From: a virus | Length of the DNA stretch: 64,000 nucleotides | Virus record (IMG/VR): IMGVR_UViG_3300025154_000052 | Span: 1 to 64,000 of that record | Strand: one strand, 5' to 3' | Shown: positions 28,186 through 33,221 of the stretch, in pieces | Numbering within the stretch: position 1 is the first letter of the stretch | Layout of the letters: every line of letters starts with the position of its first letter | The notes under the pieces: model-generated | Database searches by the model: none | What the model was told of the DNA's origin: nothing | What the model saw: the letters and a program-made list of their open reading frames with translations, nothing else | Translations under genes and position numbers: made by a program

Positions 28186-28615
28186 CCTCGCTCTCCCTCG
28201 CCCACTTTCCTACCTGTCCACAGTAACTAATCCTCTGACTGAAACTCGCTGGAATACACTGCGTGACTTCCTTCCCGTCCGCACTGTGCGGGCATTCCGA
28301 CTTGCACCGCTCGAGTACTCGTCGCTCCACGTCCGGTTGTTGATCCACTGCTTCCGTCTTCTCTGTCGCGGCTTCGAACCTTGATGCGCATACACTGATT
28401 ATCGCACCCACCTGGTCAGCGTACATCTTGCCGACGCACACGTCAGCCTTGAGACACGACTCACAGCCAACACCCGCCGCTCGAGTCGGAATGATGGCGT
28501 AGCCGATCGACTTCACATGCTGGACCACGAAGCCGCACGAGGTGCACAGCCCTTCCTCTGACGCCGCCTTTACGCTCTCGCACATCAGACACATGTCATC
28601 CATCGCAGCCTCCAA
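28175..28615 (-). CDS. Cys-rich hypothetical protein
   Basis: Several CxxC pairs; GGAGG RBS. Confidence 0.5.
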   Translation of the reverse strand: MEAAMDDMCLMCESVKAASEEGLCTSCGFVVQHVKSIGYAIIPTRAAGVGCESCLKADVCVGKMYADQVGAIISVCASRFEAATEKTEAVDQQPDVERRVLERCKSECPHSADGKEVTQCIPASFSQRISYCGQVGKWARESEAIR

Positions 28616-29456
28616 GATAACGCTTTATCGCCTCCCTGCCGGTCGTAGTCGCCCGGTAGGTATATCGACCAGGGCATGGCTCCGTTCGCTCTACCAGTCG
28701 CCTTGCAGTGAGCCTGGCGCACATTCTCGACATGCCCTGCCAACTGATGCCGATCCCCATTGCCGCCTGTGCTATTGATGATCGTCCATCGGCCATGGCG
28801 ATCAGTGCCGCGAGCGCTTCATGGGACAGCGGGACAGGCATGGGAGGTAGAACGATCGCATACCGACTCACCTCCTCACCGACTGCGTATCGGTCCACCA
28901 CACGGCCACACGCAGGACAGTGGGGACGGTGTGACATGAGCGGCGCCCAGAAGGTAACGATCTCAGACCCGGCGTGACGAGTTGACGCCTTGCACTCAAG
29001 TCGCTTCCATCGGAAGGGTGTCTCGAGGCATGACACGTTGAACAGGTACCGCTTTCGTAGCCGCGGGCTGATCCAGTCAGGGTCTACGATCTCGGGTCGA
29101 TGGGTGAGAAACTTCTCAACCTCGTCGAGCGCAAACATGCGCATGGTCGCTCGCCCAAATACCTTGCGCGGTCCATCATGTGTCACCATGCCGAGTTCCG
29201 TCACCCAGCGGGTGATCTCTTTCGGACTGACACCCAGTAGCGCAGTAATGTGGAGCGTCGGATACCATCCCTGATGATCCGTCTGGGTGTAGCCGAGTTC
29301 AGCCGCCTTGGCCTTCACCGCACCCACAGTGCGCCTTACACGCTTGGCAACAAACTCAGGTGTCTGCGCCCCCCACATGTCCGTCAGGATGTCCAGATCA
29401 GATTTCGAGTCGCTGAATGCATCCTGTTTGTTGATGATTCCCCATCTGCGTCCCAT
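28596..29456 (-). CDS. Putative DNA-binding regulator (HTH, zinc finger, winged-HTH)
   Basis: VAKRVRRTVGAVKAKAAELG, TALLGVSPKEITRW, CPAC, QAAMGIGISWQGMSRMCARLTARRLVER. Confidence 0.55.
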   Translation of the reverse strand: MGRRWGIINKQDAFSDSKSDLDILTDMWGAQTPEFVAKRVRRTVGAVKAKAAELGYTQTDHQGWYPTLHITALLGVSPKEITRWVTELGMVTHDGPRKVFGRATMRMFALDEVEKFLTHRPEIVDPDWISPRLRKRYLFNVSCLETPFRWKRLECKASTRHAGSEIVTFWAPLMSHRPHCPACGRVVDRYAVGEEVSRYAIVLPPMPVPLSHEALAALIAMADGRSSIAQAAMGIGISWQGMSRMCARLTARRLVERTEPCPGRYTYRATTTGREAIKRYLGGCDG

Positions 29457-30176: not shown

Positions 30177-30414
30177 CGGTCACCCCATCTGCCAGCCTGA
30201 ACCGTGGTTCATCCTCACTGTCGAGCCAGTCAGCGACCAGTTTTCCTTCCATCGTGAGTTTGATGGCTGCCGCCATGGCGAGTGCTCCGGCACACCAGTT
30301 CACGAACCGATGCGCCTCCTCCTCGGTAACTCTCGCGTCTCCTCGTCCATCAACGAGTGCGATGATGAGGGCTTCGATCTGGTCGTCGGTAAGGACGTTG
30401 ATACTATCGAGCAT
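30013..30414 (-). CDS. Hypothetical protein translationally coupled to the type V nuclease
   Basis: ATG lies inside the last codons of the nuclease gene, after AAGGA. Confidence 0.55.
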   Translation of the reverse strand: MLDSINVLTDDQIEALIIALVDGRGDARVTEEEAHRFVNWCAGALAMAAAIKLTMEGKLVADWLDSEDEPRFRLADGVTDVHSGDTEDDSEIPPGGEGRVDGDASGDGDPDHPRVGVESGTGGVCQATEDDPR

Positions 30415-32089
30415 CGTGCAGTTCCTTCTTTGCGCATCGTGGTTTCTTCACGACTGCACTCTGTTCACCGGTTGTCTTCGCCTCATCCAGCGCTTTACGC
30501 AGTATGTTCACAGCCGCGTTGATGTCGCGATCATGAGACACACCACACACCGGACATGTCCATGTTCTCACCGACATCGGCAGATCGTCCACTCGCTCAC
30601 CACATGCAGAGCATATCTTGCTCGATGCGGACCACTTATCGATCCGCACCGACCGACCGCCATACGCCGGCGCCTTGTACTCGAGTTGCCGGCGGAATTC
30701 CCCAGGGCATGCGTCGGTCAGACTGCGCTGGAATCCGCGCTTGCGCTTCCCTTCGCCGGTCATCTTCTCTGCGTTCTGAGTCTTCATCTCGTTGAAGTTG
30801 ATGTCCTCCAGTCCGATAAAACTGTAGGTCTGCACGATGCGAGTTGTGGCCTTGTGCATGTGATCATTACGCTGATTGGCGGCATGCTGCTGGAGTTTGG
30901 TGATCTTCGCCTCAAGGTCGATCATGCGCTGTGACTTCTGGCGACCACACCCCCGGCACCGACGACAGCGCTTTGACTCGTCCTCCAGATCCTTCCCGGT
31001 GCCCTTGCAGACCTCACATGTCACTGCCCGCCTATCCTGGACCTGGCCTGCACCAGAGCACCGCTTGCATTCCTTCTTCTTGTCCGGTTCACCAGCGCAC
31101 GCCGGGCACGGAAGCCAGATACTCTTGAGACTGATGGCCTGATTGAGTTTCGCGATCCGTGGTTCGTTCTTTCGTGCAGCGTGGAGGTTATCGATCTTCT
31201 CACCAGTGGAGAGAGTGGCAGTTGACGCTACGCCAAGATCGACACCGACTGATGGACCGGCATGCGCGGCAGGATCGGGAACGGTAATATCCATCACCTG
31301 AATAGATGCGTACCAATGCCGGTTGTCCTCGAAGACTCGAGCAGACGCAACCCGCCCTTGAAAACGCAGTTCTTCTGCCATCGTAATGCGCTGATGGTAT
31401 TTGTTCCCAGTGAACACGAAGTGTTTGCCATCAACGCCAAATATCGCGTTGCAGCCACTCTTGTCTGAACCCGGCAGAAGAAAACTCTTCCCGCTGCTTC
31501 TGTTCTTGAATCGCGGATGACCACATCCCATCCATGCGGGGAAATCCTTACACCAGCAGTTCTTGTCATCCTTACGGCGTGAGCATGGCTTTGAACCACA
31601 CTCCTTGAAATACTTATTCCACGCCTTGTTGAGGTCGATGAATGCATTGAAGCCGACCATCGCAGGCACGGCATTTGCGATTACTGCACCACGCAGTTGC
31701 CCGGATGCCGATGTCTTCTTGACCTGTGTCCATGCCGCACTCGCAGGAGCAGAGTCCCAACCTGTGGGAGCCCGCTTCAACCGATCATCATCTGTATAAC
31801 TTGCCCATTCAACCTTGGGCTTGCTCTGCTTTTTCTTTTTATCGTCAGACACTTCAGTCTTTTTCTTTTTACGCTTTGATTCTTTCTTGGGTTTCAGTGC
31901 TGGATCACGGGCCAGTCGTTCGGCGTCTGAGAGTGCATTCCAGTCGGCAATGACGCGACGATTCGACTCAATTAAGAATGACAGCCCGAAGTTCCAGGCG
32001 GTGCGAGCCACGAAGGCGCAGTCTTGGAGAAAGCGTTCCTGCTCTTTGGTGGGGAACAGACGTATTCTGTGCGACCTTGATATGTTCAC
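30404..32089 (-). CDS. CRISPR-associated TnpB-derived type V nuclease (Cas12f / V-U-like)
   Basis: N-terminal HRIRLFPTKEQ...ARTAWN (TnpB-type). RuvC-I VGVDLG, RuvC-II IGLEDINF, CSAC...CPVC zinc finger, RuvC-III HDRDINAAVNI. GTG at 32089 after GGAGG (ORF track start 32101). Adjacent to CRISPR arrays. Confidence 0.85.
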   Translation of the reverse strand: MNISRSHRIRLFPTKEQERFLQDCAFVARTAWNFGLSFLIESNRRVIADWNALSDAERLARDPALKPKKESKRKKKKTEVSDDKKKKQSKPKVEWASYTDDDRLKRAPTGWDSAPASAAWTQVKKTSASGQLRGAVIANAVPAMVGFNAFIDLNKAWNKYFKECGSKPCSRRKDDKNCWCKDFPAWMGCGHPRFKNRSSGKSFLLPGSDKSGCNAIFGVDGKHFVFTGNKYHQRITMAEELRFQGRVASARVFEDNRHWYASIQVMDITVPDPAAHAGPSVGVDLGVASTATLSTGEKIDNLHAARKNEPRIAKLNQAISLKSIWLPCPACAGEPDKKKECKRCSGAGQVQDRRAVTCEVCKGTGKDLEDESKRCRRCRGCGRQKSQRMIDLEAKITKLQQHAANQRNDHMHKATTRIVQTYSFIGLEDINFNEMKTQNAEKMTGEGKRKRGFQRSLTDACPGEFRRQLEYKAPAYGGRSVRIDKWSASSKICSACGERVDDLPMSVRTWTCPVCGVSHDRDINAAVNILRKALDEAKTTGEQSAVVKKPRCAKKELHDAR

Positions 32090-32111
32090 TTCCGCCTCCA
32101 CTCTACACTTT

Positions 32112-32348
32112 GCTACTCAGCATCCGCTGTCACGCGCCGGTGGTAAACAGATGGGCTGGATCGAGCAGCTCACAATGGTTCTCGCTACTCAGCATCCGCT
32201 GTCACGCAGATCGGGGGGCGGTCATGATTACCAAACCTGTCACAATGGTTCTCGCTACTCAGCATCCGCTGTCACGTCTCTTTCCAGGCGGTTACGTCGC
32301 ACACCTCTTCGGTCACAATGGTTCTCGCTACTCAGCATCCGCTGTCAC
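32112..32348 (-). CRISPR. CRISPR mini-array 1: three near-complete repeats, one truncated terminal repeat, 3 spacers
   Basis: Repeat GTGACAGCGGATGCTGAGTAGCGAGAACCATTGTGAC (37 bp, minus sense) at 32312-32348, 32239-32275 and 32169-32205 (one mismatch); 22-bp remnant at 32112-32133. Spacers 36, 33 and 35 bp. Confidence 0.93.
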
Positions 32349-32391
32349 TGCCTCACTAAATTTGTAAGGTGTAGCAACCATTTGCGAGCAC

Positions 32392-32462
32392 GTAGCGCGA
32401 ACCTTCGCGTTTCCAGTTGAGCGTCAACTATATCCGCGCTTATACCGATGTGTGCTCACCGG
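32392..32462 (-). ncRNA. Putative tracrRNA-like scaffold and anti-repeat, copy 1
   Basis: 46/62 identity with 32910-32971; hairpins with compensatory changes; 13/16 match to repeat 1 in anti-repeat orientation at 32392-32407. Confidence 0.6.
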
Positions 32463-32557
32463 TAAATACCTGAAATCTATTGTTTATTTTTCTTGTCTAT
32501 ACCTGCGCGAACCTGCCTGTGTTTTGATGTTTGCTACAGGTCCGCGATCATTCTAGT

Positions 32558-32855
32558 CACTCCCAACGATCAGCTATTGTCAGCCATTACCCATCTCATC
32601 AGTGCCCTCAATGGCACTCCCAACGATCAGACATTGTCAGGTGTTGTGCACTGGTCGATCGGTTTTACCCAGACGCCCTCAATGGCACTCCCAACGATCA
32701 GACATTGTCAGTGTTAGCTGTAAGTGAGGTTAAAGTGGCAAGTATCGTCCCTCAATGGCACTCCCAACGATCAGACATTGTCAGCCGGGACTGTGTCAGC
32801 AGCAGCCGCACGCAGTGCGCCCTCAATGGCACTCCCAACGATCAGACATTGTCAG
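32558..32855 (-). CRISPR. CRISPR mini-array 2: four full repeats, one degenerate terminal repeat, 4 spacers
   Basis: Repeat CTGACAATGTCTGATCGTTGGGAGTGCCATTGAGGGC (37 bp, minus sense) at 32819-32855, 32748-32784, 32675-32711 and 32604-32640; degenerate copy at 32558-32583. Spacers 34, 36, 34 and 20 bp. Confidence 0.95.
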
Positions 32856-32891
32856 GGCTGCCACCAAGACGCCAGCAATTCCAATGGCTTA

Positions 32892-32971
32892 TGATCACGT
32901 TTTCGAGCGCCTTCGCGTTTCCGGTTAAGGTTTAACCATTGACGCGCTTAAGCCGACGCTAAGTTCACCGG
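32892..32971 (-). ncRNA. Putative tracrRNA-like scaffold and anti-repeat, copy 2
   Basis: Homologous to copy 1 at nearly the same distance from its first repeat; GAGCGCCTTCG versus repeat 2 GAGTGCCATTG. Confidence 0.55.
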
Positions 32972-33221
32972 CTATCAACTAGTTGAACGTCGTAACGTCC
33001 AATCCTGTATTCAGTTTTCAAAACTCGGTATAGACCATCTGGTCATGCGAGCGACCCCCGGGATCTGAGACATCGCCGGGCCGCTCGAAAAAGGATGTCG
33101 AAGGTGCTCTCATGAGTCATGAGAATTGGCCGATCACCGTAGAGCCTTAGCACCGACGACATGAACCCAGTCTAGCACGAATCATTAAACTAGTCTCTAA
33201 AATAATCCGTGCCAGGAGGTT

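Follow-up and report, generated by a model that had tools for sequence, protein, structure and literature searches.

Two putative co-evolved tracrRNA-plus-array cassettes upstream of a TnpB-derived nuclease gene in a groundwater phage

The locus analyzed here probably encodes a phage-borne, TnpB-derived type V-like (TranC-like) system, in which one tracrRNA-dependent nuclease would be served by two co-evolved tracrRNA-plus-array cassettes. The window, i.e., the whole 64,000-nucleotide stretch of the record IMGVR_UViG_3300025154_000052 that was analyzed, belongs to a phage contig of 137.6 kb obtained from groundwater metagenomes; the phage record also contains genes for tail-fibre, DnaB-like helicase, and RusA. 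The order on the minus strand is scaffold 2, array 2, an 11-bp hairpin, scaffold 1, array 1, and the nuclease gene. The features, in window coordinates, are as follows (R1 and R2 are the repeats of arrays 1 and 2).

30404 to 32089, minus strand: gene of the TnpB-derived predicted RNA-guided nuclease, 561 aa from the GTG at 32089 or 565 aa from the GTG at 32101
32098 to 32348, minus strand: CRISPR array 1, three identical 36-nt repeats (R1) and a degenerate terminal repeat, with spacers of 37, 34, and 36 nt
32371 to 32388, minus strand: anti-repeat 1b, partial, to R1; alone, 7 and 5 bp separated by a 3-nt bulge (−17.4 kcal/mol)
32392 to 32410, minus strand: anti-repeat 1a, 16 pairs (14 Watson–Crick, 2 G-U) with the 3'-terminal 20 nt of R1, −24.1 kcal/mol
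32389 to 32480 (core; in full, from ~32490 to 32366), minus strand: scaffold 1, candidate tracrRNA 1, with stems A, B, and C, then the anti-repeat
32506 to 32546, minus strand: 11-bp hairpin separating array 2, which it directly follows, from scaffold 1
32548 to 32855, minus strand: CRISPR array 2, four identical 36-nt repeats (R2) and a degenerate terminal repeat, with spacers of 35, 37, 35, and 21 nt
32874 to 32918, minus strand: anti-repeat 2, 15 pairs with the 3'-terminal 21 nt of R2, −18.9 kcal/mol
32897 to 32990 (core; in full, from ~33010 to 32874), minus strand: scaffold 2, candidate tracrRNA 2, with the same three stems as scaffold 1

The two arrays together hold seven unique spacers, and R1 and R2, aligned with a 1-nt indel, are identical at approximately 21 of 36 positions. 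The terminal repeat of each array is the gene-proximal one; it keeps its 5' half, and degeneration is confined to the 3' half, which a guide would follow. The terminal repeat of array 1 ends in the GGAGG ribosome-binding site of the nuclease gene. The gene-proximal position of the degenerate repeats, GGAGG in the last repeat, and the strand of the gene together place the leader on the scaffold side and imply transcription of the minus strand. Since the degenerate repeat of array 1 runs into GGAGG and GTG (32089–32133), array 1 and the nuclease gene probably form one transcription unit. No sigma-70 promoter site is predicted for the cassettes, nor do they contain a terminator-like site, the sole one (31984–31999) being located within the nuclease gene, with the count within the shuffle expectation; the cassettes have no match in Rfam. 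Public runs containing the locus are four, all of DNA and all from one groundwater study. On the strand of the nuclease gene and three genes farther downstream, window positions 28596–29456 encode a 286-aa protein containing a MarR-type helix-turn-helix.

Complementarity between repeats and anti-repeats is present on both strands, and it could also be read as a Cas9-like layout of the plus strand, with arrays running from 32098 to 32349 and from 32547 to 32856 and a tracrRNA behind each array, its 5' end formed by the anti-repeat; a T-rich run (~32482–32500) does follow scaffold 1 in that direction. We consider this layout highly improbable. The minus-strand RNA duplexes are 6–8 kcal/mol more stable than their plus-strand equivalents, because G-U pairs of the former become C-A in the latter; the degenerate repeat would be the first in each array; TnpB and Cas12 guides sit 3' of the repeat; and the nuclease gene, with its ribosome-binding site, is on the minus strand.

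On the minus strand, scaffolds 1 and 2 show 79% identity across the 94-nt core. For scaffold, linker, and first repeat of the two cassettes, RNAalifold yields a common structure of 35 pairs, of which nine are changed on both sides and none is broken, these counts coming from only two copies in one genome and from a consensus structure derived from those same two sequences. As good a result is obtained in two of 500 column shuffles, and slid registers give 0–1. Stem A (8 bp) and stem C (7 bp) contain two compensatory pairs each, while stem B, GCGC with GCGC, is invariant between the scaffolds. The consensus anti-repeat:repeat helix comprises 5 bp, two of them changed on both sides (U-A to C-G and U-A to G-U).

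This helix occupies identical columns of the two-cassette alignment, in agreement with the same register proposed by a sequence-only reading of the window. The latter also had the shared CCTTCG pair with CCATTG of the repeats; here, the conserved contact holds from GG:CC, but CG of CCTTCG more likely closes stem B (GCGC/GCGC). The strings it quoted are all present at their positions. Plus-strand 32392–32407 equals the minus-strand R1 segment at 13 of 16 positions, one mismatch becoming G-U in the minus-strand RNA, and plus-strand 32905–32915 equals the R2 segment at 8 of 11, with two more G-U pairs and a bulged extension to 32892; the second partial anti-repeat to R1 that it had pointed out is anti-repeat 1b of the list. 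Together, anti-repeats 1a and 1b can span the whole of R1 (29 pairs, −32.3 kcal/mol), with 1b taking its 5' half, and anti-repeat 2, with bulges, makes 25 pairs over 32 nt of R2 (−24.6 kcal/mol). A 9–10-nt copy of the anti-repeat 1a core is carried by the 3' arm of the hairpin between the cassettes, which may be a processing or termination element or a third pairing site for R1.

The strength of the pairing was assessed with RNAduplex against the window background, using the last 22 nt of each repeat and 25,324 tiles from both strands, arrays excluded. The cognate pair of cassette 1 (AR1:R1) ranks first (z −4.9) and is the best site in the 64-kb window; that of cassette 2 (AR2:R2; −19.3 kcal/mol) ranks 1963 (top 8%, z −1.5) and is not exceptional alone; non-cognate pairs are ordinary (z −1.3 and +0.65). 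When flanks are shuffled with the shared 9-nt core fixed, the AR1:R1 energy is reached by 3 of 1500 shuffles and the AR2:R2 energy by 34 of 1500. The cognate-minus-non-cognate energy is −17.0 kcal/mol for the 3' 22 nt and −23.6 kcal/mol for the whole repeat, and none of 800 shuffles reaches it. The cognate test was done on homologous anti-repeat segments, not on whole scaffolds; raw RNAduplex of whole scaffold against whole repeat leaves cognate and non-cognate pairs inseparable, since other parts of the scaffold give rise to long, loose duplexes. RNAcofold net binding, which counts the cost of opening the scaffold self-structure, is −9.5 and −13.9 for the cognate pairs (17/300 and 13/300 shuffled repeats are as good) and −5.7 and −7.6 for the non-cognate ones (74/300 and 132/300). 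By both programs, cognate pairing beats non-cognate and shuffled pairing, which was the check set beforehand for the proposed anti-repeats. The data support the preference of each anti-repeat for its own repeat, more modestly for cassette 2 taken alone. Homology of the cassettes, this preference, and the both-side changes in pairs support the earlier proposal that scaffold and repeat co-evolved as two cassettes.

The modest standing of AR2:R2 against the window background, conserved blocks at exact leader positions, and an AT-rich stretch ahead of each block would also suit duplicated CRISPR leaders only, with promoter or integration signals, the anti-repeats being decayed inverted copies of the repeat and the nuclease using crRNA only, as does Cas12r of Thermus phages, which works without tracrRNA. 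Such an origin seems clearly unlikely. Both the two hairpins and the anti-repeat:repeat helix show compensatory changes, which suggest that selection acts on pairing in RNA rather than on DNA motifs, and the cognate specificity is beyond all the shuffles. A crRNA-only nuclease would find no hairpin to hold in the repeats themselves: folded alone, they are no better than shuffles (z −0.11 and +0.78), as expected of tracr-dependent repeats. Finally, adaptation genes that would need a leader are missing, with no Cas1 in the 137.6-kb phage record.

A different question is whether the pairing occurs in cis. The sequence-only reading had each cassette able to fold as a natural single guide, i.e., scaffold joined to the first repeat and spacer, similar to an omega RNA, with the further repeats secondary. 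For both cassettes, the minimum free energy fold of scaffold plus first repeat does contain the anti-repeat paired to the first repeat, which begins only ~43–49 nt downstream of the anti-repeat. The energy of this cis fold is −80.2 kcal/mol (z −4.3) for cassette 1 and −82.6 kcal/mol (z −0.84) for cassette 2, the latter being no better than shuffles. TranC, as Jin et al. (Cell, 2025) reportedly found, uses both CRISPR RNAs and single-molecule right-end RNAs, and it is the first spacer of cassette 1 that matches the phage genome perfectly (see below). On the other hand, each array maintains three or four further identical repeats that could be served only in trans, and a trans-acting tracrRNA explains the same facts, so the claim is unsupported in the form in which it was made. 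Present facts do not distinguish between cis and trans pairing; we assign the single guide a small but appreciable probability, and prefer the tracrRNA-dependent reading with two cassettes.

The nuclease has the Pfam domains HTH_OrfB_IS605, OrfB_IS605, and Cas12f1-like_TNB, and its best sequence family is NCBIfam guided_TnpB (4e-61); sequence matches in PDB are ISDra2 TnpB, RdCas12n (9J09), and LaTranC. In a Foldseek search with the AlphaFold model (pLDDT 72), ISDra2 TnpB 8h1j is the best match (TM 0.70 on target), LaTranC 9jfq the second, and ISFba1 TnpB follows. The RuvC residues D288/E432/D526 and four Cys of the C-terminal zinc ribbon (CxxC..CxxC) are invariant in a 45-sequence alignment; hence, as judged from the alignment, the catalytic triad and the zinc ribbon are intact. 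Between RuvC-I and RuvC-II there is a DnaJ-like zinc-finger insertion (4x CxxCxGxG; ~aa 331–386, window 30932–31111), where the model confidence is low; it is common to the nuclease and its only close relative, P0003, and absent from the aligned ordinary TnpBs. The N-terminal helical region carries a lysine-rich low-complexity insertion (~aa 63–119, window 31745–31915; pLDDT <50), which P0003 does not have.

P0003 (41–47% identity) is the sole relative, besides the nuclease itself, among about 15 billion proteins; a word-indexed search and exhaustive HMMER over 1.84 billion cluster representatives gave the same result. Other matches are generic TnpBs aligned mainly at the C-terminal RuvC part. 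IMG/VR yields no relative, INPHARED no DNA match, and other contigs encoding the protein are identical to the window. By these searches the lineage is very rare, nearly orphan, with two known members. The contig of P0003 (L003, 1.8 kb) is too short to judge whether an array is present. Upstream of the P0003 gene (L003 1–94), two 27–29-nt units resembling the 3' half of repeat 1 lie 15 nt apart; downstream, only two 8-mers are in common with the scaffolds. A covariance model built from the two scaffolds has no match on this contig and no anti-repeat is visible there; the contig neither confirms nor refutes the scaffold RNA, and was dropped as evidence on it.

Other possible copies were sought as well. 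The scaffold model finds no copy in or 3' of the nuclease gene end, where the stop codon is overlapped by the following ORF. JGI metagenomes, scanned with the scaffold pattern, contain four matching loci; these have neither a TnpB gene nor an array, and are regarded as chance matches. The repeat consensus pattern finds nothing in IMG/VR or GTDB genomes. Two long TnpB-like proteins, P0147 and P0125, were checked for a comparable cassette, and neither has one. Downstream of P0125 (531 aa, GCA_001188585.2), at the end of the contig, a 22-nt unit occurs in two identical copies, 61 nt apart (L014 4105–4187), and the protein may be another CRISPR-associated TnpB with a downstream array.

Comparison with known systems places the locus closest to TranC. 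The published route from transposon to type V CRISPR is one in which the TnpB right-end RNA is split into tracrRNA and crRNA (PMC13565253; bioRxiv 10.64898/2026.03.27.714800), and a phage-borne example, CauTranC9, is known (bioRxiv 10.64898/2026.03.27.714800). As in TranC (LaTranC, PDB 9JFQ), a little-grown TnpB-like nuclease adjoins a short array with 36-nt repeats; the guide is divided, here by prediction, between a crRNA and a tracrRNA that carries the anti-repeat at its 3' end; adaptation genes are absent; and phage-borne examples exist. Unlike TranC, the locus has two arrays whose repeats have diverged; the leader of each, located ahead of the gene, contains a separate, likewise diverged copy of the candidate tracrRNA. 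The nuclease has one close relative and the DnaJ-like insertion. On all features testable in sequence the locus appears to fit the TranC kind, this being a likeness by features, not a clade placement.

TnpB of IS200/IS605 elements (ISDra2; PDB 8H1J, 8EXA) gives the nuclease its best fold match and its best sequence family, and the guide is likewise expected 3' of a structured scaffold. Here, however, guides are kept in CRISPR arrays, the protein is ~160 aa longer, and there is neither TnpA nor a transposon context, nor a scaffold copy at the gene 3' end. The 137.6-kb phage record has no match to the Y1 transposase (TnpA, PF01797), and the nuclease gene is the only TnpB-like gene in it. With the PF01797 match and the 3'-end scaffold copy missing, the locus was not classed as an IS200/IS605 TnpB transposon.

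Cas12n (type V-N, formerly V-U4/C2c9; RdCas12n, PDB 9J09) and Cas12f are similarly miniature TnpB-derived effectors that need a tracrRNA, the 3' anti-repeat of which pairs with the 3' part of the repeat. The tracrRNA of Cas12n overlaps the 3' end of its own gene (bioRxiv 10.64898/2026.03.27.714800), whereas the candidate tracrRNAs here are in array leaders. The top PADLOC match of the nuclease is Cas12u4 (222 bits), but ordinary transposon TnpBs score 296–301 bits with the same model, so that the match shows TnpB ancestry, not membership. NCBIfam scores are 95.7 bits for C2c8, vs. a cut-off of 350, and 33 for Cas12f2, vs. a cut-off of 450; the family HMM scores rule out membership in Cas12n (V-U4), C2c8 (V-U2), and Cas12f. 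Cas12r of Thermus Lalka phages acts with crRNA alone and has 29-bp repeats after the gene (bioRxiv 10.64898/2026.04.20.719267). It is also a phage-encoded TnpB-like nuclease (~564 aa) that comes with a mini array and lacks adaptation genes; the locus differs from it in the 36-nt unstructured repeats, located before the gene and accompanied by anti-repeat scaffolds, and on these grounds was not assigned to Cas12r. TnpB-derived effectors with a tracrRNA and an array, including those in phages, are known from published work. What appears unusual here is the duplicated cassette, with co-diverged repeat and anti-repeat, and its location in the leaders of arrays that precede the gene.

The spacer of array 1 nearest the leader (32312 to 32276) is identical to a site in the phage genome itself (106058–106094; 37 of 37 positions), in the same strand sense. 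The matched site coincides with the 3' end of an 80-aa ORF, ~80 nt ahead of the next gene; its 5' flank ends in TTCACC, and the protospacer and its flanks are identical in contigs from both samples. Apart from this self-match, no protospacer of any spacer is found in INPHARED, PLSDB, IMG/VR, or GTDB, and hence no PAM/TAM can be derived. No array variants occur among contigs aligned to the locus. In the second groundwater sample, summed contig depth at the leader-proximal spacers of array 2 (32656–32843) is 7.0 and 2.3, vs. ~13 beside them, which could reflect heterogeneity of spacer content in the population, contig depth being a poor measure.

For transcription, processing, loading, cleavage, and targets, we infer the following scheme. 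The minus strand would be transcribed through scaffold 2, array 2, scaffold 1, and array 1 into the nuclease gene. Each scaffold of ~80–140 nt would fold into the three stems, and its 3' anti-repeat would hybridize, starting from the conserved GG:CC contact, with the 3' part of the repeat of its own array, which would otherwise be unstructured. Either the nuclease or RNase III of the host would trim the tracrRNA:crRNA duplex, and the resulting pair would load the single 561-aa RuvC nuclease, which would cut DNA matching the spacer beside a 5' motif. The two cassettes may have arisen by duplication of a tracrRNA-plus-array unit, with repeat and anti-repeat then changing together; after this joint change, each tracrRNA would prefer its own array.

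A bolder version, which we regard as speculative and rather unlikely, is that one nuclease uses two orthogonal co-evolved tracrRNA:crRNA pairs, so that two guide sets are matured or regulated independently, and that the self-guide is used on the phage itself and is not accidental. If true, this use might be gene control, genome processing, or exclusion of near-identical competitors; in any case, the self-matching spacer raises the question of what use a phage has for a guide against itself.

As far as the sequence can tell, the locus is a real and very rare member of the TnpB-to-CRISPR transition with a duplicated tracrRNA-array design, its function being predicted. If the cassettes work as predicted, they would provide two mutually selective tracrRNA:repeat pairs for one 561-aa nuclease, i.e., ready-made orthogonal guide maturation in a very compact editor scaffold, and would offer a within-genome view of the joint drift of repeat and anti-repeat after the omega RNA of a transposon nuclease has been split.
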